Source of the DNA: Pyrobaculum calidifontis JCM 11548
GTDB taxonomy: Archaea; Thermoproteota; Thermoprotei; Thermoproteales; Thermoproteaceae
Length of the DNA: 32,000 nt
Assembly (NCBI RefSeq): GCF_000015805.1
Contig: NC_009073.1
Span: 660,001-692,000 of the forward strand
Reading direction: 5' to 3'
In this document: one piece after another, positions 14,499 through 27,092 of the stretch
How positions within the stretch are numbered: position 1 is the stretch's first letter
How the letters are laid out: each line of letters starts with the position of its first letter
Notes under the pieces: model-generated
Databases searched by the model: none
The model's input: only the letters and a program-made list of their open reading frames with translations
Told to the model about the DNA's origin: nothing
Translations under genes and position numbers: made by a program

Positions 14499-14681
14499 CT
14501 ATTGAGACACCTGCCTCCTCGGCCCCACCCTTAGCACAAACTCTCTGCCCCTCCCCACGTAGTGGTTGAAGAGTCCGCCACAGCGCCTACACCTGTAGTG
14601 GGTGACGCGGTAGCCCATCTTCGGCATCTCCCAGCTCTTAACAGCCTCCACATCCTCAGAGCCACAGTAGGGACACTTCAT
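14499..14681 (-). CDS. Small zinc-ribbon protein (60 aa)
   Basis: Two Cys pairs, CPYCG and CRRCG, are spaced as in a zinc ribbon. A TATA-like ttaaaac box lies about 23 nt upstream. Confidence 0.7.
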   Translation of the reverse strand: MKCPYCGSEDVEAVKSWEMPKMGYRVTHYRCRRCGGLFNHYVGRGREFVLRVGPRRQVSQ

Positions 14682-14754
14682 AGTGACATGATTGTACAGT
14701 GTTTTAATCTTTCTCTACCGCTATAGTTATATATTCACAGTAGCGAGACTGAAT

Positions 14755-15204
14755 ATGTATCTACTGTTCAAGGGCAGACTTGCAAACTTCAGCCACAGCC
14801 TCCTCGACTACCTAGAACGCAGAAGTGCGTTAATAAGGCGGTTTCTGCCCGGCGTCTTCCTCTGGGGCGCCTCTAGGCGAAACTCGTTGTTGCAGGAGGG
14901 GGCCCACGTATTTCTATACGTCGCCAAAGAGGTGGGCTTCCCAGGCGGAGTCGTGTTATACGGCGTCTTGCAAAAGCCGGAGGAGCTGTTGGAAAAGTAT
15001 TGGCCAGAGGGCGAGTGGCCAATCCTCCTGCCCATAAAGGTGGAGAGGCTAGCGCCCGGCGTGGCGGAGAGCCCCCTCGACCCCTCCCGGTGGAGACCAG
15101 TGACGCTGGCCCAGCTCCAGCAGATCGGAGTCCGAGTACTGCCCTCACCAGCGCAGCCGTTGCCCGAGGAAAAGGCCAAGGCCTTGTTGTCCCTCCTGAG
15201 GTAA
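14755..15204 (+). CDS. PUA-like (EVE/ASCH-type) domain protein (149 aa)
   Basis: The ATG at 14755 lies about 25 nt after the tatagttatatatt box. The protein shares the pattern LWG...G.hVFLYVAK...VLYGV...YWPEGEWPILLPIKV with the second EVE-like protein at 26561..27049. Its TAA stop overlaps the ATG of the SNF2 gene. Confidence 0.7.
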   Translation: MYLLFKGRLANFSHSLLDYLERRSALIRRFLPGVFLWGASRRNSLLQEGAHVFLYVAKEVGFPGGVVLYGVLQKPEELLEKYWPEGEWPILLPIKVERLAPGVAESPLDPSRWRPVTLAQLQQIGVRVLPSPAQPLPEEKAKALLSLLR

Positions 15205-17663
15205 TGGCCAGCGCCGTCACACCGACAAAGGTACTGGCGGCGTTTAAACAGGCGGGAAAGGAGCCCTACCTCCACCAGCTAGACTTGGTGTCAGACCTCC
15301 TCCTCTTGCCCAGGTTTAAAGTCCTCTTGGCAGACGACGTGGGGCTCGGCAAGACAATTGAAACCCTTGCCTATGTGAAATTGGGCGTGGAGAGCGGGCG
15401 CTTGGCCAAGGTGCTTATAGTTGTCCCAGCCGCGCTTCTCGACCAGTGGCTAGACGAGCTGAGGAAATTCGGCTTCACAGACGAAGAGGTCTACGTGGCT
15501 AGGGAGGCCGTCTTGGCGCCTGGGAGGCCTATCTACGTGGTGACCATGGACAGAGCAAAGAAGGACGAGTACCTCAAGTTGCTGGAGCAAGTCCCGTGGG
15601 ACTTAGTGGTGATAGACGAGGCTCATAAGCTCCGCCTAGACACACAGCGGCTGAGACTAAAGACGTTGTGCGAGAAGGCCAAGAGCTGTCTGCTACTCAC
15701 CGCAACTCCGCACACTGGCGATGAGAAGAGCTACGCCATCTTGAGGGGCACGGTGGATAAGGTGGTGAGGAGAGAGAAGAGAGACGTAGAAGAGTATGAA
15801 ATGCGGAAAATCTTCCCCAACATACGCTACTACATCGTCAGAGTAAAAGCCACGCAAGAGGAGGCCAAGGCCTTGAGGGAGATAATTAGGCTGTTGGAAG
15901 AGGCGGAGGTAGAGCCAATTGTCAGATACGTGGTCCTTAAACGCGCCTTGTCCAGCCCCCTGTCCCTAATCACGACGTTGAACAAGGTCGTAGGCGGCAC
16001 CTGCACCGAGGAGGACCTGGAAGAGGGCGAGTTAGACGGGTGTCTCTCCCACGTGCAAGACCTCTTGAAAAACGTCAAAGCGTACACCGCCGAGGATAGG
16101 AAGCTCTCTGCGCTGAAGAGGGTTTTAAACGGCCCACTGGCCGGCAGAAAGACTATAGTGTTCACCGAATACGCCACCACGGCCCAGTACCTCTTCCAAG
16201 CGCTGGCGGAGAACTGCGACGCGGAGTGGGGCGAGGGGTTTGGCAAAGCCTACTGCAAGGACGGCGCGGTCATGTACACGACTCACAAGGCGAGGGTGGA
16301 GCTCGGCGACGCGATAAATAGAGAAATCGAGGAGCTGGCCGCCAAGCCCAGGCCAGTGCTAATAACCACGGACATATTCACCGAGGGCGTCAACCTCCAG
16401 ATGTTCGACGCAGTGGTGAACTACGAAGTTGTGTGGAGCCCCACAAAACACGTCCAGCGGATAGGCAGAGTGTGGCGGCTGGGACAGAAGAGCCAAGACG
16501 TGGCCGTGGTAGACATGGCGCTAGACGCGCCCGGGACGAGGAGCGAGTTTGAGATGTACGTCGAGTACTTAGATAAGATCTACCAGATAAACCTCACCGC
16601 GCTCACTCCCCACGCCTACGCCGAGTACGAGATATACGAATTCAAGGGAGAGCTAGAGGAGAAGATCAAAGTCAAGATATCCGACCTCGGAGGGGTCTAC
16701 ATACCCACAAGCGACGCCATAGCCGCCATCTTCGAAAAACGGCTCGAAGAGCTGAGAGAAAAAGTGGAAAAACTGCTACAGCTCAAGGAGGCGCTGAGGG
16801 GTGCCAAGGACCGCGAAAAACTCCTCAAAGACCTAAAGGCCAAGCTGGGCTGGCCGCCGGAGAAGAGCCCAGAGCCCGGCGGTGGGTACTACAAGGCCAA
16901 GCTAGTGGTAGAAGTGGGCGGGCTCCCCGCATTAGAAGAGAACCTACTGGCCAGGCTCGACACGCCGCTAAGTAAGACGAGACAAGTAAAAGGCGATGTG
17001 GTGTACAGAGAGGTGGAGCTAAGCGGCGTAGAGATACAGGGAGAGCCAGGCGAAATAAGGCAGGACGAGAAAAAGAAAATAGAGCAAGCCGCCTTGAAGT
17101 TTTTTGCAGACCACCTTTGGACCTACGCGAAGCAACTCATAGGAGACCCAAGGCTGAGAGACAGCGTTAGGCTGAGAATACAGGTAGAGGAGAGAGCCAT
17201 AGTCACCACAAGCGTCTCTCTAGACGACTTCGACGCCGCGGTGGAAGAGGCCCTGAAGAGGAGTGACTATAGGACAAAGACAGAGCACACCGCGGTTAAG
17301 TGCATAAAGGAGTACCTCGTCAAACAAGGCTACAGGATTGTCCGCGACTATGACAGCGCTCCCCGGCCCTTTGACATGGTCGTAGAAAAAGGCGGAAAGA
17401 GGTACACCGTGGAGTGCAAAGGGCGCTACATACGGCCGGGCGAGGCGCTGTCTGTGACCCTGACGGCAAACGAGATGGACTGGGGCTCCAAGTACCCCGA
17501 CAGGCACCTAATATGCGTAGCCACCGTAGAAGGCACGAGGTGCAACACCGTAGAGTGCTACACCTTTGACCAATTCTTAAAAACGTGGAAAGTGGCCACC
17601 AAGCGGGGTCTCGACTACGTGGTAGAGGCAGTCAAAGAAAGCGTCGATAAAGAGAGGCAATAG
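15204..17663 (+). CDS. SNF2-family helicase/translocase with a C-terminal PD-(D/E)xK (DUF3883-like) nuclease-fold domain (819 aa)
   Basis: Helicase motifs are DDVGLGKT (I), VVIDEAHKL (II), LLLTATPHTG (III) and TEGVNLQ...QRIGRVWRLGQ (V/VI). The C-terminal 130 aa carry PFD...VECKG...LTANEMDW...HLICVA. The real start is the ATG at 15204, not 15000. Confidence 0.9.
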   Translation: MASAVTPTKVLAAFKQAGKEPYLHQLDLVSDLLLLPRFKVLLADDVGLGKTIETLAYVKLGVESGRLAKVLIVVPAALLDQWLDELRKFGFTDEEVYVAREAVLAPGRPIYVVTMDRAKKDEYLKLLEQVPWDLVVIDEAHKLRLDTQRLRLKTLCEKAKSCLLLTATPHTGDEKSYAILRGTVDKVVRREKRDVEEYEMRKIFPNIRYYIVRVKATQEEAKALREIIRLLEEAEVEPIVRYVVLKRALSSPLSLITTLNKVVGGTCTEEDLEEGELDGCLSHVQDLLKNVKAYTAEDRKLSALKRVLNGPLAGRKTIVFTEYATTAQYLFQALAENCDAEWGEGFGKAYCKDGAVMYTTHKARVELGDAINREIEELAAKPRPVLITTDIFTEGVNLQMFDAVVNYEVVWSPTKHVQRIGRVWRLGQKSQDVAVVDMALDAPGTRSEFEMYVEYLDKIYQINLTALTPHAYAEYEIYEFKGELEEKIKVKISDLGGVYIPTSDAIAAIFEKRLEELREKVEKLLQLKEALRGAKDREKLLKDLKAKLGWPPEKSPEPGGGYYKAKLVVEVGGLPALEENLLARLDTPLSKTRQVKGDVVYREVELSGVEIQGEPGEIRQDEKKKIEQAALKFFADHLWTYAKQLIGDPRLRDSVRLRIQVEERAIVTTSVSLDDFDAAVEEALKRSDYRTKTEHTAVKCIKEYLVKQGYRIVRDYDSAPRPFDMVVEKGGKRYTVECKGRYIRPGEALSVTLTANEMDWGSKYPDRHLICVATVEGTRCNTVECYTFDQFLKTWKVATKRGLDYVVEAVKESVDKERQ

Positions 17664-18006
17664 CGGCGCCGAAATCCCTCAAAAAGTCGATCCCCCACTG
17701 GAGAAGCCGGTACTCAAGCACCGATGCAAGCGCCGAAGCCTCAAAAGCCCTCATCATATTCACAATACGCCTAGCCTCCTCCGACCGCAACCCCGCCCTC
17801 CTCAGCGCAATGTACAGTAAGGCCCTTTCGCTGAGGTTGGGGTGCTTGACCTCTAACACGTTGCCCTCCACCCGCCAGTCTACACCCTCGTCAAAGGCTA
17901 TAAACAGCCTAAAAAGCGGCGGAAACTCGCCCAGCTTAACACCGCTCCGAAACTTAAGCCTCCCCAACTCCACTACGGCATACTTAGACAAAAACCTCAC
18001 TCTCAT
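17632..18006 (-). CDS. Hypothetical protein (124 aa) coupled to the upstream ATPase gene
   Basis: Its ATG overlaps the TGA of the 1019-aa gene (ATGA at 18003-18006). Its 3' end overlaps the convergent SNF2 gene by 32 nt. I recognise no motif. Confidence 0.6.
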   Translation of the reverse strand: MRVRFLSKYAVVELGRLKFRSGVKLGEFPPLFRLFIAFDEGVDWRVEGNVLEVKHPNLSERALLYIALRRAGLRSEEARRIVNMMRAFEASALASVLEYRLLQWGIDFLRDFGAAIASLYRRFL

Positions 18007-21000
18007 TCCTCCACAATCTTAGTCCACAGAAGCGCGCCCTTGCCCAAGCTCTCAAGCAGAGACTTATCGACAGTTACAGGCTCCTTAAACTTGACAGTGA
18101 CCCCCACGTTCTGAGTCACCGGCTCCACAGCCTTTATAAGCCGACGAGCCTGCTGCAGATGGCCCCTACGCCCCCTAAACTCCAGCCTGAGATTCAAATC
18201 CTCAGAAGCCTCAATAGCCCTAACTTCGACGACCTCTACAATGTCCTCCTTCAACCTCTCAAGAAGTCGGACAGCCTCAGCCGCAGACGACGCAGACACG
18301 GCCACTACCACGTCGCCCACATTCACCACCGCCGTGGACACCTCGCGCCTCCTTCTCACACGCACATTCAAAACTACGCTCCTCTCCACCACGCTACCAT
18401 CGGCAAACTCTGCAACAATCTTCACCACGTACTGCGGATCCTCCCCAACACGTACTTTAAACTGGAAAAACACGTCGTTAACCGTGGTCTCGTGTTGAAC
18501 GCCTGCAAACTCCCAAATGACGCGGGAAATCTTCTCATCAGACTCCACAGCTATCACAACCTCGTCCCCCGGATTCACCTCAGCCAGAGACGTAACCACA
18601 CCGTTGACTTTGACGTCCAGCCTCTTCTTACGCTTTTCAATGCGGTACTTAGCATGCTTTAGATACATCCAGTCCTCTCTCTCCCTCAAAACGTCTGCGA
18701 GGCTACGCCTCACCTCTTCACCGCCTAGCCTCTGATACGTAAACTCAACAGACCCGCGGCTATCCAAATAGGTAAGAAACTGCTCTACAACAGACTCGTT
18801 GACCGAGCCCTCCACGTAAGCCAGCGCCACCTCGGAATTCCTGGGATCCCTCAGCTCGTAGAAACACCCACCCCCCTCCGAGATCCACTGATACTCGCCC
18901 CCCTCCCTCACCACACAGTTGCAATCCTCTCTACACCTCCTAAGAAGCCCCTCCACAAAGTCGTCAAACGACAACGGGTAAGGCGGCGCATCGTCGTTGT
19001 TAAGCCACTGATCCCACAAGTCGCCAATTTTCACAAAGACTTGCGCCCTCCCAAGCGCCCACTCTATTACAGCCTCGGGCTTGCTACTGCCAAGGTACTT
19101 GGCCAAATACTCCAAGCCCCCAGACGCAGAGATCCGCCTACCCAGGAGGACCTCGTCCAGCCACTTCTCCACATACCTCCTAATGTACGACCTAGCCACC
19201 TCCTTTATACGCTCAAGACGCACCTTCACCCCATCCTCCAGCGCCTGCCTGAGAGCTCTATCCTCCACTTGCACAATGTCGGGAAAGTAGCTCTCCAAGT
19301 CCTCCGCCACTCTGTCAACGGCCACCTTCACCCTGCCCAACATGTACAAAGCCCCAGAAAGCTTATCAGGCGGCACAGCCACCTTGCCCAAAAACTCTTT
19401 CACATCCCCAGGCACAGCCCCCTCCCTCGCCCTTACCACAAACAGGTTGTTACGCCTAGGCACCTGCGCCGTCCCCCTGAGGTCCACCAAAAGCGCCGAG
19501 AAGTCCCGCTCCCCCACGTAGTCGGCGGCCTTCTTTGCATCGTCAAAAGAGGACACCCCCTCAGCCTTCCCCTCCTTCCACCCAAGCACTGCAACGCGCT
19601 TGAACCTCTTAGCCACAGACTTGACGAGTTGCTCCACCTCGTCATGGACAGCCTTAGCCCCCTCCTCCTCTGAGACGTACACCAGGGCCTTTGCCAAAGC
19701 CTCGTACTCGTCTGGAAGAGGCAAATAGACGTAGCCCCCCGCGGTCTTCTGCACCCTAAAATCCCCAAGCCTCCTCACCGCGTTAGACACAGGAAGCGCC
19801 CCAAGAACGACATCGTAGTTACCCAAGATAAGCGCGGCCTCATCTGGGTATATCCCACTCCTAGGCATGAGCCTCCCCACAAAGCTACGGTAAATCACAT
19901 GGCGCAGAACCGAGCGGAGGACAAAGTCGTCGCCCGCCGCCTCCTCATCCTTCCTATACAGACCAAGGATGGAGCTCCAGAACTTGCTAAACTCGGGAGG
20001 CGGCTCCACCACCTCGCCAGGCTCAGGCAGATCCCCATGCACCACAAGCCCCCCACCCCTCTCCACCGCGCTCTTCAAAGCCTTCAAGGCAGACTGCAGA
20101 AGGCCCCTAGTGAGCTGAATTCTAGACGCCTTCACAAGGCTCTCCTCGGCGAGCAGGAGGAGCGTCTCAAGCGCCACAGGGTTGAAGGGATACGTCTCAG
20201 CCACCTTCCCATGAAACTCCTTCACCTTGTCCTCCGGCACCACGCCCACGAGATCCCTAAACTCGCGGTAAGGCGGCACCTTGTCAATCCCAGCCCACCT
20301 CCTCACGATATGCACAATGTTCCTCACAGCATCCATCTCAATAATCAGCGGGTCCACCCTCCTCAGCCTTTCCAAGCTAGGCGGCGAATACTGGCCGCTG
20401 GCCAAGCTATACGACACCACCAACGCCTTGCCCGGCCCAGCCTCCACAAACACCTCAGAGAGAAGCTGCATATAGTCCGCAAACTGTGCGCCAAACCTGT
20501 TGTCAAACATCCCAGCCTCGTCAAAGAGGTAGAGGACAGGACCGCGCCCCACCAACTCCCCCCTCAGCAAATCCTTCGTCGGCACGCCGCTCCCCCAAGG
20601 CGGCGACGAAGCGTAACCACCGTGGAAAAGCACCACCCTCAAATCCCCCTCCAAGTCAGGCAACTCCACATCAATCCCATACCTCTTAAGCTCCTTAACC
20701 ACACACTGCCCAACCCCACGACACTCCCTATAAAGAGCCGCCACGTGAAGCACAAACGCCAAAAAGTGCGACTTCCCAGCCCCCAGGTAGGCGGGAAGCA
20801 CAAAGACGTTCTTCCCAGGCCGCCCAGCCAAAACCCCAAACAACACAGACAGCCACCTAACCATCCCCGCCGTGGGGTACGTCACAGAGAAAAACTCCTC
20901 CCTCGAACAATACACCTCGTGACCTGCGACAGGCCGCCCCCCACCAAACAAACAGTCAAACACCACCTTCACATCAACCGCAGGAGATACACCACCAGAC

Positions 21001-21062
21001 ACAAACCTATCCACAACATCAAGCCGCCTAACAAACTCCCTCAACTGCATAAAGCCAAACAC
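18003..21062 (-). CDS. Large P-loop ATPase, DUF499 / BrxC(PglY)-like (about 1015-1019 aa)
   Basis: The Walker A motif is LPAYLGAGKSHF (about 20766-20786) and the Walker B motif is VLYLFDEAG (about 20517-20534), followed by a very long C-terminal region. An alternative start at ATG 21050 fits the tataaaaaat box (21071-21080) better than the GTG at 21062. Confidence 0.85.
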   Translation of the reverse strand: MFGFMQLREFVRRLDVVDRFVSGGVSPAVDVKVVFDCLFGGGRPVAGHEVYCSREEFFSVTYPTAGMVRWLSVLFGVLAGRPGKNVFVLPAYLGAGKSHFLAFVLHVAALYRECRGVGQCVVKELKRYGIDVELPDLEGDLRVVLFHGGYASSPPWGSGVPTKDLLRGELVGRGPVLYLFDEAGMFDNRFGAQFADYMQLLSEVFVEAGPGKALVVSYSLASGQYSPPSLERLRRVDPLIIEMDAVRNIVHIVRRWAGIDKVPPYREFRDLVGVVPEDKVKEFHGKVAETYPFNPVALETLLLLAEESLVKASRIQLTRGLLQSALKALKSAVERGGGLVVHGDLPEPGEVVEPPPEFSKFWSSILGLYRKDEEAAGDDFVLRSVLRHVIYRSFVGRLMPRSGIYPDEAALILGNYDVVLGALPVSNAVRRLGDFRVQKTAGGYVYLPLPDEYEALAKALVYVSEEEGAKAVHDEVEQLVKSVAKRFKRVAVLGWKEGKAEGVSSFDDAKKAADYVGERDFSALLVDLRGTAQVPRRNNLFVVRAREGAVPGDVKEFLGKVAVPPDKLSGALYMLGRVKVAVDRVAEDLESYFPDIVQVEDRALRQALEDGVKVRLERIKEVARSYIRRYVEKWLDEVLLGRRISASGGLEYLAKYLGSSKPEAVIEWALGRAQVFVKIGDLWDQWLNNDDAPPYPLSFDDFVEGLLRRCREDCNCVVREGGEYQWISEGGGCFYELRDPRNSEVALAYVEGSVNESVVEQFLTYLDSRGSVEFTYQRLGGEEVRRSLADVLREREDWMYLKHAKYRIEKRKKRLDVKVNGVVTSLAEVNPGDEVVIAVESDEKISRVIWEFAGVQHETTVNDVFFQFKVRVGEDPQYVVKIVAEFADGSVVERSVVLNVRVRRRREVSTAVVNVGDVVVAVSASSAAEAVRLLERLKEDIVEVVEVRAIEASEDLNLRLEFRGRRGHLQQARRLIKAVEPVTQNVGVTVKFKEPVTVDKSLLESLGKGALLWTKIVEE

Positions 21063-21158
21063 AAAACCACTATAAAAAATTCAAGACGTAACTAAGAGAG
21101 GAACCCGCCGCTACACGTAGGGCGATGGGATTGGCCCTTGCGACAGCCGCCTCTGGGC

Positions 21159-24002
21159 CTACATGAGGAGGGAGGAGGCGCCTAGAATCGCCTCGGCGGC
21201 CTTGACGTCTGGGTCGTCTTTGCTTAACACCCCCGCGTCGCAGAGTTTTACAAAGGCGCGGCACAGGGCGAGGACCTCCTTAAACACCTCCTCGCCGAAC
21301 TTGGCCTTGATTTGGTCAAACTTGAACGAGGGGCTGAGGGCCCCCGCCTCGGCCTCTCTAAACGCCTCCAACACCTTCGACCTGCCCCGCACCTTTCCCA
21401 GCGCCGACACATACGCTGGCACAGACGCCTCGGCCGGCGCCACCACCCTAAAAGACTTACGCTTAGCCACATTCGCGCCGCCGGACTCCACGGGCTCCAA
21501 AAGCCCCGCCTTAACCATGTCGCCGTCTGACAGCCCAGTGGCGTACTGCACATACGCGACTGTGTCGCTGTCAACCACGCCGCGCTCCGACGCGGTGCGG
21601 AGCAGGAGATACGCCAGGGCGTAGGGGTCCCGCACCTCCACTCCCAAAAACCGCAGAGCCCCCTCGAACCCAATCGAGGTGGCGGCCCCCAACACCGACT
21701 CGACGTCCAGGACGGCGCCGGCGTACCTCACCTCCTTAAACCTCAAAAGGGCAGAGAGCCCAGCAACATAGGCGTAGACAAAGAAGTCATGCGAAAACGC
21801 CCTGTACTTCTCAAACTCCTTTGCCACAAGCTCCACCACCTTGGCCCTCTGTGCGGGGTCCGCCAAGTCCACTATCCCCTCCCCATCCACTGCCTCCCGC
21901 CTCCTCCACGCCGCCACGAACCCCCCAAGCACCGACGCCTTGCCCCTCGCCACCACGCTCTCCTCGCTCTCAGTAGCCACAGGATACGCCGCGGTCAGCA
22001 CAAGGCCGCTGCGCCTCCAAAGCGCGTCCACCAGCGCCACCCACGCCTCCGGCTTCTTGGCCACGTAGTACACCACGAGGAGGCCCTCCGGCTTGAGGAA
22101 GCGGAGGATGTTGGAGAAGGCCCTGGCGAGGAGGTCGGCGAAGCCCTCCCTCATCTTAAAGTACTCGAAGCGCCCCTCGTTCTCCGACACCTCCCTCGGC
22201 GCAAAGAACTGCCACTGCGTAGTGACCTCCTCCCCAAACTCGTCGAAAAAGGCCTCGGGCAAAAACCTCGGCACGAGGCGACCGCCATCAACGCCGCTGA
22301 GAGCCCGCTTAAGCCACACGTAGTAGAAGTCGCTAAGCTCCGCATAGGGCACGTCGTCGGCGTAGGGCGGATCAGTGAGAACGACGTCAAACACCTCGCC
22401 CTCCAACTTGCTAAGCGAGGCTGCGTCGTCAAGCAAAACCCTAACCCCACCAGGGCTACCAGAGACCGCGGAGACAAGATAAGACAAGCTCTCAATAACA
22501 GTGTTGACGCTCCGGACGTAGGTACCCGTCCACATTGTCCACGGCGACATGTCGTCCCAATTCCACATCATAGCAATACCTCTCATAGAAAGAGAGTGGC
22601 CCATTATCAACGATCGATTCCACCCAGCTACAATTGAGCTATAATCAACGTATTTGCATAATGCTACCGCTAAATACGTCGTTACCGCTTCTGCGTATTT
22701 GTGGGCGTCTTCTCTGCCCCATCCCTCTCCCAGCTTCTCCTCCTCGGCCAGCCTGCCCGCCTCGCGTATAAGCTTCACCAGCTTGAGCAAAGCAAGAAGC
22801 TGACGCGGGTTGAAGAGCTTAAACCATTCGTCAAAGCCATAGAGAATGGGGAAGAGGTACCTGTTGCTATAAGGCGATACAGGCTCTGTCGGTATGTCTG
22901 GGTCTCCCCACATCTCCCTAAGCTTTTCCGCGGCTTTCCACAGCTTTTCCACGTCTTGGCCGTCTGCTGGCTCGAAGCGTAGGTCTCTGCCCTCCGCCCT
23001 CACCTTGACGAGTAGCGTCGGCCTGGCGGGGCTTCCCCTGAGCTCCTCCAGCGTCGTCTCGCCTCTTAGGTAGCGCTCGTATCTCTCGTTCCACTGGCGG
23101 AGGGCCCACTTGACGTACCAGTCGCCGACTTTCTTCTTGGCGCTCGGCTTCACAATCTTCCCGTCGACGGCGCGGTGGTTTATCTCTGCGCCGCAGTGGA
23201 GGCAACGCGCCGTCTCCCGCCTCGCGTCTATGTTCTTGGCGGGCACTCTGTACTCCCTCCCCCCGGCCTTAACCACGCCGCCCTCCCCCTCCTCGCCCCT
23301 AGCCTTAACCTCAGCCCTAACGCGGCCAAGGTCCACTACCCTCACGCCGTTGTTCCACTCCATCCAGGCCAGCCTCTCGTACTCACTGCCCTTCTTTACC
23401 CTTGCCAGCCACCAGTTCCCCACCAGCGGCGTGTGGCGGCCGCAGGCGGGGCACTTCACCTCCCACGTCCCAATGTAAACAGCGGCGTCGCCGTAAAGCC
23501 CCTTGACGTCGGGGTCCTCCCTCAGCCTCTCCACGACCCACCTCCCCCACTTCTCCACCTCCTTGGCCAAGTCAATCCTCCTCTCGGCGGCCCACTTGGG
23601 GTACTCAAGGACGGCCTTGAGGAAGACGTAGGCCGTGGGGAGTAGCTCTACGGCCGTGGCGTCTAGGCCAAGGCGGAGCGCCTCAAGGGGGATAGAGCCG
23701 AAGCCGGCGAAGGGGTCCAACAGCTTCTTCCCCCTTAGCCTCTCTACTAGGCGGGGAGATGGGTTGCACGTGTGTACCGTCTTTCGCTCGCCTCTGCAGG
23801 GGAAGAGGTGTGTGAGGAATTGTTGTGGGTTTATGTCGTCTAGGAGTGCGGCGGCTATTATCGCCCTGGCGCCGGCGAGGGGCTTTCGGGTCCACCAGAA
23901 CACCATCTCCCAGTGGGGCGGCCTGCCGGGCCCCTTCTCCACTTTTGAAAGTTCGTTGATCTCGTCGATGGGGAGCCCCCTCTCCAGGAGGGTCACGTAC
24001 AC
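21159..24002 (-). CDS. DNA methyltransferase with Zn-ribbon insertion (DUF1156 / COG1743-like, N6-adenine or N4-cytosine class), 947 aa
   Basis: The N-terminus carries FWWTRKPLAGARA (DUF1156-like WWxRxP). Motif I is LLDPFAGFGSIP (about 23697-23717). Cys pairs CPACG and CLHCG form the ribbon. Motif IV is VLTDPPYADD (about 22362-22373). Confidence 0.9.
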   Translation of the reverse strand: MYVTLLERGLPIDEINELSKVEKGPGRPPHWEMVFWWTRKPLAGARAIIAAALLDDINPQQFLTHLFPCRGERKTVHTCNPSPRLVERLRGKKLLDPFAGFGSIPLEALRLGLDATAVELLPTAYVFLKAVLEYPKWAAERRIDLAKEVEKWGRWVVERLREDPDVKGLYGDAAVYIGTWEVKCPACGRHTPLVGNWWLARVKKGSEYERLAWMEWNNGVRVVDLGRVRAEVKARGEEGEGGVVKAGGREYRVPAKNIDARRETARCLHCGAEINHRAVDGKIVKPSAKKKVGDWYVKWALRQWNERYERYLRGETTLEELRGSPARPTLLVKVRAEGRDLRFEPADGQDVEKLWKAAEKLREMWGDPDIPTEPVSPYSNRYLFPILYGFDEWFKLFNPRQLLALLKLVKLIREAGRLAEEEKLGEGWGREDAHKYAEAVTTYLAVALCKYVDYSSIVAGWNRSLIMGHSLSMRGIAMMWNWDDMSPWTMWTGTYVRSVNTVIESLSYLVSAVSGSPGGVRVLLDDAASLSKLEGEVFDVVLTDPPYADDVPYAELSDFYYVWLKRALSGVDGGRLVPRFLPEAFFDEFGEEVTTQWQFFAPREVSENEGRFEYFKMREGFADLLARAFSNILRFLKPEGLLVVYYVAKKPEAWVALVDALWRRSGLVLTAAYPVATESEESVVARGKASVLGGFVAAWRRREAVDGEGIVDLADPAQRAKVVELVAKEFEKYRAFSHDFFVYAYVAGLSALLRFKEVRYAGAVLDVESVLGAATSIGFEGALRFLGVEVRDPYALAYLLLRTASERGVVDSDTVAYVQYATGLSDGDMVKAGLLEPVESGGANVAKRKSFRVVAPAEASVPAYVSALGKVRGRSKVLEAFREAEAGALSPSFKFDQIKAKFGEEVFKEVLALCRAFVKLCDAGVLSKDDPDVKAAEAILGASSLLM

Positions 24003-24198
24003 ACTACAGCCCCTTCTTTAAAGCATGTACATGCGATATAGATAATATGGCGCCTGAATCGTCTTTAATAGCGTTAGATGTGCACATTGTGGTACTTAAG
24101 AATGTAGTTGAGCTTTGGGTCTAGGTCTATATTAAGTATGCAGATGTGTCTACTTTGTTTTTAAACATGCATTTATAAATGTGGGCTGAGCAAGGGCC
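24003..24198. promoter_or_regulatory. AT-rich divergent control region with three palindromes
   Basis: This region lies between the methylase start (24002, minus) and the 264-aa gene start (24199, plus). It contains ctttaaag near the methylase start, gcatgtacatgc (24023-24034), atgtgcacat (24078-24087), and catttataaatg (24170-24181, a TATA-containing palindrome 18-29 nt before 24199). Confidence 0.45.
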
Positions 24199-24993
24199 GT
24201 GGGGTCGCTGGTTAAGGTGGTTGTGTTTCCTCAGGCGGAGGCTAGGTATAGGGTTGTGGATGAGTTGAAGAGACGTGCAGGGGAGGAACTTGTCTACAAT
24301 AGGATCGTCACAGTTATTCCTAGGAGCGATGTTGAGTCTGTGACTTATGACGATAGAGAGGGCCATTTTGAGAGGGGCATTAAGCTCGTGATTCCGCTTA
24401 AGCTGAAGGTCTCAAGGGGAGACGTGCCTCTGCGGGGCTCTGAGGTGTTGGGTGAGGACTATTTTAGGCTTGAGGTGGAGGTTCCTGAGGAGGTGGTGAC
24501 TCTTAGGGGGGAGTGGAGGGTGAAGAGGAAGGTGACGTGTAGCTTCTTCTACTATGTGGATAGGGATTTGGAAGATGTTGCTGTATTGACTTCCGCAGAG
24601 GGCGTTAAGGCGATTAATGGGGCTGTGGAAGCGCTTAGAATGCTCCACATCTATGTGCCTGATACTAGGCTTGAGCTTCCGAGGGGTCAGAAGTTTAGGG
24701 AGATGTTGAGCAGGCTGGGGGAGCTCGGGTGGATTTCTATCTCTGAGATCCAGGACGTGAGCATTAGGTTCGCTATTGTGAGTGGGAGGTGGCTTGAGAG
24801 GCATCCTGTTGTGTCTGACTTGTCTGAGCGGGGGCAGGTCACGGCCCTGGTCATAAATAAGGAGGGCTTGAGGCTTATACTGAGTGTGAGGGGCATCTAC
24901 GTTCAGCAGCGCCTTGCGGAGGTCGCCGTGGCGGAGCGGGTGGCTGAGGTGGTGAAGGTGTTGAAGGAATTCGGCGTGTTTAAACCCGGTTGA
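24199..24993 (+). CDS. Hypothetical protein (264 aa)
   Basis: Clean ORF with a GTG start and protein-like composition. I recognise no motif. Confidence 0.6.
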   Translation: MGSLVKVVVFPQAEARYRVVDELKRRAGEELVYNRIVTVIPRSDVESVTYDDREGHFERGIKLVIPLKLKVSRGDVPLRGSEVLGEDYFRLEVEVPEEVVTLRGEWRVKRKVTCSFFYYVDRDLEDVAVLTSAEGVKAINGAVEALRMLHIYVPDTRLELPRGQKFREMLSRLGELGWISISEIQDVSIRFAIVSGRWLERHPVVSDLSERGQVTALVINKEGLRLILSVRGIYVQQRLAEVAVAERVAEVVKVLKEFGVFKPG

Positions 24994-25648
24994 GTATTTC
25001 GGCGTATATCTCCTCCATATTTGCTATGGACGGCGGTAGGTCTACCACGACCGTGGTTTTGTGTGTATACACCTTTAGGTCGAGTTGTCTCTTTGCCAGG
25101 TAGTCCTGTATCTTTGCCGCGGCTTTTTGTGCGTTATTCTGGTCTAGGTAGTAGACCTCTATTCTACCGGCCCAGCTCATTGCCCCAAGCTCGCTGTATG
25201 TCAATTTGACGAATTCGCGGATTGCCGCCGCCACGTCCTCGCTCTTCGCTCCCAGCGGCACTAGGAGGAGGGTGACGTCGGTTGAGTGGTCCCTCTCCAC
25301 CTCTGGCGCCTCCACCTCTATGCCGAAGGCCTCTCTGAGGAGCTCGCTGTCGGGTATGGTGTCTTGGGAGGTGTACCATGTGGCTAATATGTACCCACGG
25401 CCGCTCTTGTACAGACACGGGAGTATCTTCTCGTCTTTGCATACATAGAGCCTCATCAGCGTGCTGTCTATGTGCTTAGTCGCGGTGGAGCTTCTGAAGA
25501 ACGCCGTTATGTAGATTTGCACAAGCTTCTTGGCCTTCTTTATCTCTGTCTCTAGGTATTCCCTAATTTGCGGCGCTACGTCGAGACCGAGCTTGACTAG
25601 CGATATCACGCTCCTTATCAGCTCGACTGTGGCGGTGGCCTCTGTCAC
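24980..25648 (-). CDS. Hypothetical protein (222 aa)
   Basis: The ORF has a GTG start, with its own AT-rich box (ttatttaag, 25668-25676) in the 29-bp gap after the MazG-like gene. Its 3' end overlaps the convergent 264-aa gene by 14 nt. Confidence 0.6.
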   Translation of the reverse strand: MTEATATVELIRSVISLVKLGLDVAPQIREYLETEIKKAKKLVQIYITAFFRSSTATKHIDSTLMRLYVCKDEKILPCLYKSGRGYILATWYTSQDTIPDSELLREAFGIEVEAPEVERDHSTDVTLLLVPLGAKSEDVAAAIREFVKLTYSELGAMSWAGRIEVYYLDQNNAQKAAAKIQDYLAKRQLDLKVYTHKTTVVVDLPPSIANMEEIYAEILNRV

Positions 25649-25677
25649 GTTATTTAATTGCTGTGGTTATTTAAGTT

Positions 25678-26034
25678 TTAGAACCTCTTCATGTTTTCTT
25701 CCAGTTTTTTGAAGTATGCCTGTTCTAGGTCTATGCCGAGGAAGCTGGCCATGGTTAGGACGTAGATGAAGACGTCTGTCAGTTCCTCCTCTATCTTTGG
25801 CAGAGCCTCTTGAAGCGTGAGGCCTTTCCCTCCGTATACGGTGGCGCGGACTACCTTTTTGACGACGTTGGCGAGCTCTCCCACCTCGCCGGCGAGGGCG
25901 TTGGTGAAGTACTCAAGCCGCAGGGCGGCGTCTCGGTCGCCTTCTACGCGCCAGAAGTGTGGGAACTTCTCTCCGGAGAACTGGGCCTGTATCTTGGCGA
26001 GCTCTCTCAGCTCCACTTCCGCCCCCGCGCGCAT
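25678..26034 (-). CDS. MazG-like all-alpha nucleoside triphosphate pyrophosphohydrolase (118 aa)
   Basis: The metal-binding motifs LAGEVGELANVVKK and IEEELTDVFIYVL are followed by LGIDLEQAYFKKLEENMKRF. This is the canonical small MazG/type-2 dUTPase-like pattern. Confidence 0.85.
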   Translation of the reverse strand: MRAGAEVELRELAKIQAQFSGEKFPHFWRVEGDRDAALRLEYFTNALAGEVGELANVVKKVVRATVYGGKGLTLQEALPKIEEELTDVFIYVLTMASFLGIDLEQAYFKKLEENMKRF

Positions 26035-26036
26035 GT

Positions 26037-26558
26037 TTATATCTCCGGCATTTTACATGCAGATATTTTCGCAAGTAAGGCCGGCATCACCTCTCTATAG
26101 AGGAGGGCTGGCACTACGTAGACGTCGCGGCCGAGCTCCGCCTCTCTGAGGTCGTATTCTCTAAGCATTTTCCTATATTCCGCGTTCATCGATCTAAGCG
26201 CTTTTCTGATCCTTCTGGGAACGTTTGTCATTATTACTAGGTAGCGCGTTCGCCCTGACTTTGGCATCTTTTCTAGCTTTTTTACCAGTTTTTCTATGTA
26301 TTTCTTGCCACCTACTTCGTGCCCTACCTCAGATTCTATGACCACTTCTATGTCGCCGTAGGTTAAAACTACGTCTACTCCTTCTTCGCTACCTGGGCTT
26401 ATCTTCTCTATTTCAAAGCCTAGGGCCCTTGCGATTGCTATTATGTCTATGAGAGAGTAGTCGTGTAGCGTCTCTGCGGCATTATCTACGAATTTCCTGA
26501 GAGATACCCTTTCAGGTTTGCGCTCTTGCGAATCTTGGTCTTGTCTCGGCTTCGGCAT
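26037..26558 (-). CDS. Hypothetical protein (173 aa), possibly restriction-endonuclease-like fold
   Basis: The middle gene of a tight operon, with 2-nt gaps on both sides. The segment ALGFEIEKISPGSEEGVDVVLTYGDIEVVIESEVG resembles the E...D...ExK core of Mrr/PD-(D/E)xK proteins, but it has E-S-E in place of ExK. Confidence 0.6.
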   Translation of the reverse strand: MPKPRQDQDSQERKPERVSLRKFVDNAAETLHDYSLIDIIAIARALGFEIEKISPGSEEGVDVVLTYGDIEVVIESEVGHEVGGKKYIEKLVKKLEKMPKSGRTRYLVIMTNVPRRIRKALRSMNAEYRKMLREYDLREAELGRDVYVVPALLYREVMPALLAKISACKMPEI

Positions 26559-26560
26559 GT

Positions 26561-27049
26561 CTAGGCTATTTTAACGTAGATGCCCATTGATTTCAGTTTT
26601 TCTCTGAGTTTCTCTAGCACGGTCTCTGCCTCGTGGGGTGGGGCCTCGCCTATCCCGTAGCCGTCTACGTAGTTTTCCAAGTGCGTGAAGTAGGCGCCTA
26701 GGGGCTCCTCGGAGTATATGATGATGTAGAAGGAGACGCGCCATGGGAATAAGACCTTGCCCTTGTTGACTTCCTCTGGCCAGACGGGCGTCTGGTCGTC
26801 GTAGAATCTATCCTTCGCTATGCCTACGGCGTGTATGTCGCCGCTTTTGGCGAGTTGGAAAAATACCACGTCGCCAGCCGAGAGGTTGTTGTAGAGGTGG
26901 AGGAATTGCCGCCAGTTTTTTGCAAGTGTTGACTTTTTCCTGCTTGACTTACTGTCGTGCGGCTTTTTCCAAAAGCCCCAGAGGAGCCTCTCGCTGGCGG
27001 TTTTTATGTTCTCTTTGTTCTTGGAGGCGAATACCCAGTACTTGCCCAT
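26561..27049 (-). CDS. EVE/PUA-like domain protein (162 aa)
   Basis: The pattern KYWVFASKN...LLWGFWKK...GDVVFFQLAKSGDIHAVGIAKDRFYDD...VLFPWRVSF is EVE-type. A tttttatc box lies about 27 nt upstream on the minus strand. Confidence 0.7.
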   Translation of the reverse strand: MGKYWVFASKNKENIKTASERLLWGFWKKPHDSKSSRKKSTLAKNWRQFLHLYNNLSAGDVVFFQLAKSGDIHAVGIAKDRFYDDQTPVWPEEVNKGKVLFPWRVSFYIIIYSEEPLGAYFTHLENYVDGYGIGEAPPHEAETVLEKLREKLKSMGIYVKIA

Positions 27050-27092
27050 GTTGCCTAGAAAGCGTGCTGATAAAAATTCGTGTTTATTCGTT

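Follow-up and report, generated by a model that had tools for sequence, protein, structure and literature searches.

A probable restriction-modification-like defense system of the Hma/type-1 BREX-related family in Pyrobaculum calidifontis, with components particular to the Thermoproteota

A 32,000-nucleotide (nt) stretch of the Pyrobaculum calidifontis JCM 11548 genome (NC_009073.1, positions 660,001 to 692,000; called the window here) contains a cluster of five genes, designated A to E, and a small zinc-ribbon gene, designated Zn60. We propose, with a probability of roughly three in four, that this locus is a restriction-modification (RM)-like system directed against viruses and plasmids and that it represents a Thermoproteota-specific version of the Hma family, also classed as type-1 BREX-related (BR) systems. 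The proposal is based on gene content, domains, catalytic motifs, conservation and operon order and on the predicted fold of the A protein; a defense role of the RM kind is proposed because the homologous Hma and MANTIS systems have defense activity. Payne et al. (2021) gave the name Hma to the triad of a Snf2-nuclease, a DUF1156 methylase and a DUF499 ATPase, which Anantharaman et al. (2013) and Bell et al. (2020) had noticed before, and Rakesh and Krishnan (2026) describe it as a DUF499-centered type-1 BR system of three genes. An initial annotation of the window, made from the sequence alone, had suspected that its genes belonged to a catalogued helicase-methylase-ATPase type, and Hma is that type. 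The core of the locus is an ordinary member of a defense family that was catalogued between 2013 and 2021 and partly dissected between 2024 and 2026. Compositionally, the Thermoproteota version differs in the small gene C, the zinc ribbon and a helicase lacking an N-terminal extension, and the P. calidifontis lineage differs further in a rare PUA-like putative reader and an inverted effector gene.

The three core genes, E, D and B, are clustered inside 9.2 kb in P. calidifontis. The E protein carries FWWTRKP at amino acids (aa) 35 to 41, DPFAGFG at aa 96 to 102 and DPPY at aa 544 to 547. Motif I precedes DPPY, and the inserted target-recognition region bears a four-cysteine zinc finger (cysteine pairs CPAC, aa 184 to 187, and CLHC, aa 267 to 270). 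E matched DUF1156 in Pfam (PF06634; E = 1.9e-10), MTase_II (PDLC03352; 3.5e-202) and HmaB (6e-53) in PADLOC, and DUF1156_antiphage in NCBIfam (9e-31), and orthologs were found in every related locus. The NCBIfam "anti-phage-associated" models for DUF499, DUF1156 and the PLD-helicase score far under their own cutoffs at the P. calidifontis locus.

The D protein has a Walker A motif (GAGKS, aa 94 to 98) and a Walker B motif (LFDEA, aa 179 to 183). It did not match DUF499 (PF04465) directly in Pfam, and a search against PDB sequences returned nothing meaningful. The direct matches in PADLOC and NCBIfam were weak and confined to aa 49 to 109, around Walker A (HmaC, 6e-5; DUF499, 1.5e-4; DUF499_antiphage, 3.6e-6). 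Full-length homologs were found at 30 to 42% identity and 97 to 100% coverage. PF04465 was matched by 13 of the 27 aligned members of this family (best E = 2.4e-15), and the carriers of the match are full-length homologs at 30 to 35% identity, so that D is assigned to DUF499 transitively, through its homologs. ATPases of this DUF499 type have been placed in the ORC/Cdc6 clade of AAA+ ATPases.

The B protein matched SNF2-rel_dom (PF00176; 2.4e-18) and Helicase_C (PF00271; 1e-13) in Pfam and DrmD (3e-40), HmaA (8e-36) and BrxHI/II (2e-33) in PADLOC. When the C-terminal third of the protein was scanned alone, aa 695 to 774 matched NOV_C (PF13020, formerly DUF3883) with an E value of 3e-5 and a score of 24.5 bits, the gathering score being 22.1. 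HmaA is operationally defined as Snf2 plus NOV_C. The motifs GLGKT (Walker A, aa 47 to 51) and DEAH, together with D723, E737-x-K739 and TANE of the C-terminal nuclease (E...D...ExK), are invariant in nine homologs, and the nuclease motifs FDMVV...VECKG...TANE are conserved. No PLD domain was found in B; the phospholipD_antiphage and PLD_Helicase models cover the helicase part alone (aa 236 to 442). The nearest solved relative of B is RapA, and chromatin remodelers are also among the nearest. All nine B proteins of the clade begin at the same point, at the Snf2 core: position 13 of B corresponds in the alignment to position 93 of a 1,146-aa bacterial HmaA-like helicase, and B and its clade relatives thus lack the N-terminal extension of about 80 to 90 residues found in these bacterial proteins.

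The initial annotation had described the five open reading frames (ORFs), their coordinates, the short overlaps between neighboring genes and the 32-nt convergent overlap correctly, and the motifs that it named in E, D and B were located in the sequences. Among the families that it expected, SNF2, Helicase_C, DUF1156 and NOV_C were found by Pfam and DUF499 was reached through homologs only, while EVE and ASCH gave no Pfam match. Its statement that PglZ, BrxA, BrxB and BrxL are lacking agrees with our finding of none among the window ORFs that were scanned with Pfam, a scan outside which some small ORFs fell; no iSTAND gene was found among the same ORFs.

Loci holding relatives of D were collected by profile-guided retrieval (Vulcanisaeta, Pyrobaculum oguniense, two Pyrobaculum metagenome-assembled genomes, Zestosphaera and Caldivirga) and by exact look-up (Thermofilum pendens, Acidilobus and three metagenome contigs), and their ORFs were searched with the five proteins of the window. 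Ten related Thermoproteota loci have a codirectional operon in the order methylase, ATPase, (small protein), helicase. The order E, D, C, B is seen in Pyrobaculum, Vulcanisaeta, Thermofilum and Zestosphaera; in Caldivirga and Acidilobus, C is missing from an operon that is otherwise the same. The supplements of the BR-system paper contained no entry that we could find for Pyrobaculum, and those of the EVE paper none for the P. calidifontis locus.

C is a conserved fourth gene of the Thermoproteota clade of the system. Its homologs, 124 to 138 aa long, are encoded between the genes for the ATPase and the helicase in L008 to L012, L014 (T. pendens), L016, L017 and L018; eight of the ten related loci have the gene, the two lacking it being those of Caldivirga (L013) and Acidilobus (L015). 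Genes of this family overlap the stop codon of D (in P. calidifontis through ATGA), and where the operon is codirectional, as in L008 and L010, they overlap the start of B as well. The encoded proteins are basic, with isoelectric points (pI) of 9.3 to 10.4. In comparison with L017, whose ATPase is 83% identical, the ratio of nonsynonymous to synonymous substitution rates (dN/dS) was 0.11 for C and 0.15 for D. The initial annotation had listed the 124-aa ORF and had missed both its conservation as a component of the clade and the cotraveling Zn60. Type-1 BR systems have been described as three-gene systems, and C appears to be an unreported, clade-specific addition to them.

C had no match in Pfam (including DUF3780), PADLOC, NCBIfam or PDB. 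Identity with DUF3780/MtsB was rejected at the sequence level, as none of five family members (C and four homologs) gave a Pfam match at E <= 10. The idea that C is the N-terminal (TUDOR) domain of the helicase turned into a separate gene was not supported (hhalign probability, 0.1% against the full-length bacterial HmaA-like helicase; the PADLOC HmaA model misses C), and a relationship to A was rejected (hhalign probability, 0.4%).

Table 1. Features of the P. calidifontis locus (window coordinates)
Feature	Position	Strand	Description
A	14755-15204	+	149 aa; standalone PUA-like (EVE/ASCH/YTH-fold) protein, predicted base reader
B	15204-17663	+	819 aa; HmaA-type Swi2/Snf2 translocase with C-terminal NOV_C nuclease, predicted restriction effector
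Nuclease domain of B (aa 695-774)	17286-17525	+	NOV_C/DUF3883, PD-(D/E)xK fold, catalytic residues intact
C	17632-18006	-	124 aa; basic, no family match
D	18003-21062	-	1,019 aa; divergent DUF499 (HmaC-type) ORC/Cdc6-like AAA+ ATPase, predicted loader/licensing factor
E	21159-24002	-	947 aa; HmaB-type DUF1156 N6-adenine DNA methyltransferase, predicted self-marking enzyme
Zn60	14499-14681	-	60 aa; basic four-Cys zinc ribbon (CPYC...CRRC); outside the range covered by the initial annotation
Zn60/A-B divergent intergenic region	14682-14754		73 bp; presumed shared promoter/operator
3'-end overlap of B and C	17632-17663		32 nt, convergent

The start of D in public gene calls lies 4 codons later, which gives a protein of 1,015 aa. 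The stop codon of A and the start codon of B share one base (TAATG). An AT-rich, TATA-like element, TTATATAT, was read about 21 to 28 nt 5' of the ATG of A, within the region between Zn60 and A that we presume to serve as a common promoter/operator of Zn60 and A-B.

Mechanistic work on two relatives suggests how the system could operate. In MANTIS, a sister type-2 BR system (Shaw et al., September 2026 preprint), the methylase MtsC depends for loading and activation on the ATPase MtsA together with the small protein MtsB, and it modifies a single strand of its asymmetric 6-bp site. Restriction is the task of MtsD, a helicase-nuclease, which acts preferentially between unmodified sites in inverted orientation. 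In the Hma family, HmaA protects Escherichia coli against T4 through helicase and nickase activities. With this nickase-dependent defense demonstrated and MANTIS dissected biochemically, the statement in the initial annotation that the mechanism had not been worked out does not stand. By analogy, E would mark the host chromosome through N6-adenine methylation of a short sequence, probably modifying a single strand of an asymmetric site, as BREX and MANTIS do. The ORC/Cdc6-like D would load and activate E on DNA, with C as a coactivator or adaptor in the role of MtsB; C is a candidate for this role, as a positional analog of MtsB, because it is basic like MtsB and its gene directly follows the ATPase gene. 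At unmethylated sites on incoming DNA, the machinery of D, C and E might license B, which would translocate on double-stranded DNA and nick or cut it with its PD-(D/E)xK domain. In the P. calidifontis lineage, the helicase gene has been inverted and has gained the overlapping upstream gene A, whose product most likely binds B, either checking methylation before cleavage or extending restriction to foreign modifications, as its position and the fusions of its relatives suggest. The biochemical roles given here, the type of methylated site and the partnerships of A with B, of C with D and of Zn60 with DNA are those that we infer.

The A protein gave no match in Pfam (including EVE, PF01878, and ASCH, at E <= 10), PADLOC or NCBIfam. 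Its identification as an EVE protein by sequence was rejected (hhalign, 4% against a Pyrobaculum EVE protein; a PDB profile search returned PH1033 at a nonsignificant E of 1.1). A model obtained with AlphaFold2 from 10 family sequences, recovered by exhaustive search, had a predicted local distance difference test score (pLDDT) of 96.2 and a predicted template modeling score (pTM) of 0.90; an input of two sequences had given a pLDDT of 36. In Foldseek, the 12 best PDB matches of this model were all ASCH, EVE, THYN1 or McrB N-domain structures (E values of 1e-5 to 3.5e-4, probability of 1.00, template modeling [TM] scores of 0.5 to 0.6), and YTH came next. They included ZmASCH (1e-5), the EVE structures 2eve, 2ar1, 2g2x and PH1033, and THYN1 bound to 5-methylcytosine DNA, and the model superposes on the DNA-bound N-domain of Thermococcus gammatolerans McrB (1.4e-4). 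The fold of A is confidently predicted to be PUA-like (EVE/ASCH/YTH), in agreement with the initial annotation. The conserved aromatic residues W37, Y55, Y82, W83, W88 and W113 would be compatible with a pocket for a modified base. The most economical role for A, judged from the modeled fold, would be that of a DNA base-state reader attached to the motor-nuclease B.

The family of A is very rare. An exhaustive HMMER search of 1.84 billion cluster representatives gave 19 matches, and a word-indexed search gave one relative besides the P. calidifontis protein itself. The arrangement of A and B recurs on six metagenome contigs. Two McrB-type AAA_5 GTPases, which matched only McrB proteins in PDB, carry the domain at their N terminus, and in P0033 it is fused behind a Zn60-like N-terminal ribbon (Zn60 and this ribbon are 35% identical; E = 3e-8). 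A standalone homolog in L007 adjoins a BrxH/HmaA-like Snf2 helicase and a metallo-β-lactamase nuclease.

P0034, a 581-aa metagenome protein, combines a P-loop ATPase, a nuclease-like D...E-x-K motif as read from the sequence and a C-terminal A-type domain; it had no PADLOC match and is a candidate single-protein restriction factor using an A-type reader. In L007 (598-4234) and L023 (7189-11555), a BrxH/HmaA-like Snf2 helicase is followed by a protein of about 410 aa. That of L007 is a nuclease of the metallo-β-lactamase fold (DRMBL/RMMBL), and that of L023 is identified by N-terminal resemblance to the L007 protein only. The pair is accompanied by the A-type protein in L007 and by Zn60, an S-adenosylmethionine-dependent methylase and an EVE-fusion protein in L023, and it may be a separate, uncharacterized helicase-nuclease module. 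In L022 (1-9375), the A-family protein P0032 is clustered with a 1,024-aa putative methylase, an unannotated protein of 1,121 aa and a BrxL-like protease/ATPase; an EVE-containing protein of 306 aa follows P0032, and a convergent HerA-NurA pair lies farther on. This layout recalls the HerA/FtsK-centered BR systems described in 2026.

Zn60 is the only one of the 25 flanking genes of the window that has homologs in the flanks of related loci. Loci L009, L010, L012 (with two copies), L013 and L015 have such a homolog next to E-D-(C)-B; none was found within 8 kb of the T. pendens operon (L014). The Zn60 protein has a pI of 9.8, and its gene has a dN/dS of 0.12 to 0.16. The association was also approached from the other side, with a four-sequence alignment that retrieved 58 metagenome loci with Zn60 homologs. 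Genes of the E, D or B type were present in about 17 of the 58. In most cases this was an E-type methylase gene immediately beside the Zn60 homolog and on the other strand, and one locus has the full E-D-B set. Zn60 homologs were found as well beside Eco57I-like type IIG N6-methylase/restriction giants (L040, L042, L044, L057 and L072), directly 5' of EVE-domain proteins (PF01878, 6.8e-12; L061 and L053) and near a 1,388-aa STAND/ORC-like ATPase (L048). Some are longer ORFs that run past the ribbon, as in L056, and in L060 an A-like fragment lies upstream of the Zn60 homolog on the opposite strand. Zn60 thus recurs in the company of PUA-like readers and of restriction modules with adenine methylases. 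It is probably a DNA-binding controller or accessory, and its frequent place just upstream of the methylase gene would resemble that of RM controller proteins; it may serve archaeal adenine-methylase restriction modules in general.

These wider associations bear on whether A and Zn60 belong to the system. It is plausible, although we consider it the less likely reading, that the two form a separate module, such as a modification-sensing regulator or a type IV-like part, and that the functional system consists of E, D, C and B only. A is absent from all 10 related E-D-(C)-B loci. The family of A has other partners (the McrB-type GTPases, the ATPase/D...E-x-K protein P0034, the BrxL cluster of L022 and the pair of L007), it is tied to Zn60 through the fusion in P0033 and the fragment in L060, and Zn60 has its own further associations with Eco57I-like enzymes and EVE proteins. 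Against such a separation, the TAATG overlap implies cotranscription of A and B and probably coupled translation, and the arrangement is kept in six independent metagenome contigs. Zn60, in turn, travels with E-D-(C)-B even in relatives without A, and EVE partners of the operon type COG1743->DUF499->SWI2/SNF2 are a reported, recurrent theme (Bell et al., 2020).

The convergent design, in which the initial annotation saw two facing units, is a lineage-specific inversion of the helicase gene, since the related operons are codirectional and the helicase lies on the opposite strand only in the P. calidifontis lineage; the B/C overlap is the junction of this inversion. No inverted repeats were found around the inverted segment, and no tRNA genes at the borders of the inversion or island. 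An inversion relative to every other member of the clade raises the question of whether the effector was uncoupled, leaving a remnant that is decaying or has been rewired, such as an orphan methylation module beside a silenced or repurposed helicase-nuclease, and the 32-nt overlap of the B and C 3' ends could bring transcriptional interference. We regard this as improbable: all ORFs are intact, the catalytic residues are invariant, and the convergent junction of 32 nt persists in L017 with the low dN/dS values given above for D and C. Taken together, the dN/dS values of 0.1 to 0.16 for C, D and Zn60 indicate purifying selection.

Flanking genes are not common to the related loci, save Zn60, and the system therefore sits in variable contexts. 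Such nonconserved contexts are as expected of a mobile defense island. Toxin-antitoxin and other defense genes neighbor related loci. In T. pendens (L014; CP000505.1, 923492-942551), the neighbors of the four-gene operon are PIN, HEPN/nucleotidyltransferase and PDDEXK_10 genes, a content typical of defense and toxin-antitoxin islands. Homologs are also borne on plasmids. A nondefense role as a chromosomal epigenetic, chromatin or replication-repair housekeeping module, which would suit the ORC/Cdc6 placement of D, the RapA and chromatin remodeler relatives of B and the housekeeping flanks in the window, is very improbable in view of the patchy distribution, a context that differs in every genome examined, the toxin-antitoxin and defense neighbors, the plasmid-borne homologs, the fusion of a restriction-type nuclease to the motor B and the antiphage activity shown experimentally for homologous systems.

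The flanks of the window that we class as housekeeping encode an A-type ATPase subunit, a pseudouridine synthase, a GNAT acetyltransferase, a diphthine-synthase-like methylase, a DUF401 protein, a KaiC-like ATPase, a copper P-type ATPase and a manganese catalase. Next to the methylase gene, a block of five small to medium genes (24003-27060) has a G+C content of 0.51, compared with 0.59 for the window. It includes a MazG-like pyrophosphohydrolase (25678-26034; PF03819, 2e-7); its remaining genes had no family matches, and the four genes of the block that were scanned with PADLOC had no match there. Lying next to the system, this block may represent another segment gained by horizontal transfer. 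A 162-aa protein encoded at 26561-27049 on the minus strand, the same strand as E and 2.5 kb past it, resembles a Pyrobaculum aerophilum protein of the published EVE set (27% identity over 110 aa; pairwise E = 1e-6) and had no Pfam EVE match. It is a second PUA/EVE-like candidate and may correspond to the "EVE partner" that was published for archaeal operons of this type.

Several observations weigh against the proposed RM-like defense system. In a Halomonas study, HmaA alone conferred defense, and premethylation by HmaB left T4 infectivity unchanged, so that an RM-like logic is unproven even for bacterial Hma. No P. calidifontis methylome was found in the literature, nor any experiment on this locus or on any archaeal member. 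The DUF499 assignment of D is transitive only. C has no detectable similarity to DUF3780/MtsB or other proteins, and its proposed role rests on position and charge. B lacks the N-terminal extension in which, according to Rakesh and Krishnan (2026), the TUDOR domain of type-1 helicases is located; B would thus lack this TUDOR domain, the identity of the missing segment being taken from that paper. The link between A and B consists solely of the TAATG overlap, and A must be dispensable for the core mechanism, as it is absent from all 10 related operons.

A broader reading, which we think unlikely to hold in full, would join all of these parts in a Thermoproteota Hma subtype of up to six components, in which C replaces MtsB/DUF3780 as the coactivator for methylase loading by the DUF499 ATPase, the zinc ribbon controls expression or DNA targeting and, in P. 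calidifontis, a new family of PUA-like readers, which archaeal McrB enzymes also have, is coupled to a helicase-nuclease devoid of the N-terminal extension. If it were true, one effector would restrict both unmethylated DNA and DNA with foreign modifications. Nothing in our findings overturns current views. The most useful lead is C: the authors of the MANTIS study expect other proteins to take the role of MtsB in other BR types and leave the substitute open, and C is a concrete candidate for hyperthermophilic archaea. A belongs to a very rare reader family, found ahead of McrB-type GTPases and beside Snf2-nucleases, and may illuminate how methylation-based systems read the state of DNA. Zn60, which in hot-spring archaea is associated with adenine-methylase restriction modules of several kinds, may be an archaeal counterpart of RM controller proteins.

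In comparison with known systems, the locus is like Hma/type-1 BR systems in combining a Snf2 plus NOV_C helicase, a DUF1156 methylase and a DUF499 ATPase in one locus without PglZ. It is unlike them in that its helicase has no N-terminal extension and falls short of bacterial HmaA by about 330 aa, gene C stands between the ATPase and helicase genes where type 1 has three genes, a zinc-ribbon gene cotravels with the system, the helicase gene of the P. calidifontis lineage is inverted with a PUA-like gene ahead of it, and the ATPase is too divergent for a direct Pfam match to DUF499. The systems reported by Bell, Wolf and Koonin (2020) in diverse archaea, with the order COG1743->DUF499->SWI2/SNF2 helicase-nuclease->EVE, have the same three core genes and a standalone PUA-like/EVE-type protein beside the helicase-nuclease. 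In P. calidifontis, by contrast, A lies upstream of the helicase rather than downstream, has no EVE sequence match and forms a very rare family of its own, and a second, more EVE-like protein is encoded past the methylase gene. The initial annotation had argued for a distinct variant from the nuclease domain and the reader-like protein. A helicase-restriction endonuclease fusion occurs in 79% of type-1 taxa (Rakesh and Krishnan, 2026), and a standalone EVE partner was described by Bell et al.; both features had already been published, and the argument for novelty therefore fails as it was stated.

McrBC-type restriction systems share with the locus the use of an A domain at the N terminus of McrB AAA_5 GTPases, the place where EVE, YTH and DUF3578 readers sit; A differs in standing alone beside a Snf2-nuclease, with no McrB or McrC in the window. 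Type-3 BREX and type-3 BR systems have a homologous ATPase (BrxC/DUF499), a methylase and a Snf2 helicase (BrxHII), whereas the P. calidifontis helicase bears a nuclease and PglZ and iSTAND were not among the window ORFs scanned. MANTIS differs in its nuclease, which is an N-terminal HKD/PLD domain where that of P. calidifontis is a C-terminal PD-(D/E)xK domain, in its small protein, which belongs to DUF3780 and has no similarity to C, in its gene order and in the NCBIfam equivalog models, which score far below their cutoffs at the P. calidifontis locus. MANTIS (Gao_RL) and the P. calidifontis system nevertheless have in common a homologous DUF499 ATPase, a DUF1156-type methylase of the α group, a small protein gene directly after the ATPase gene and a helicase-nuclease as the effector, and MANTIS is the best mechanistic model available for this locus.

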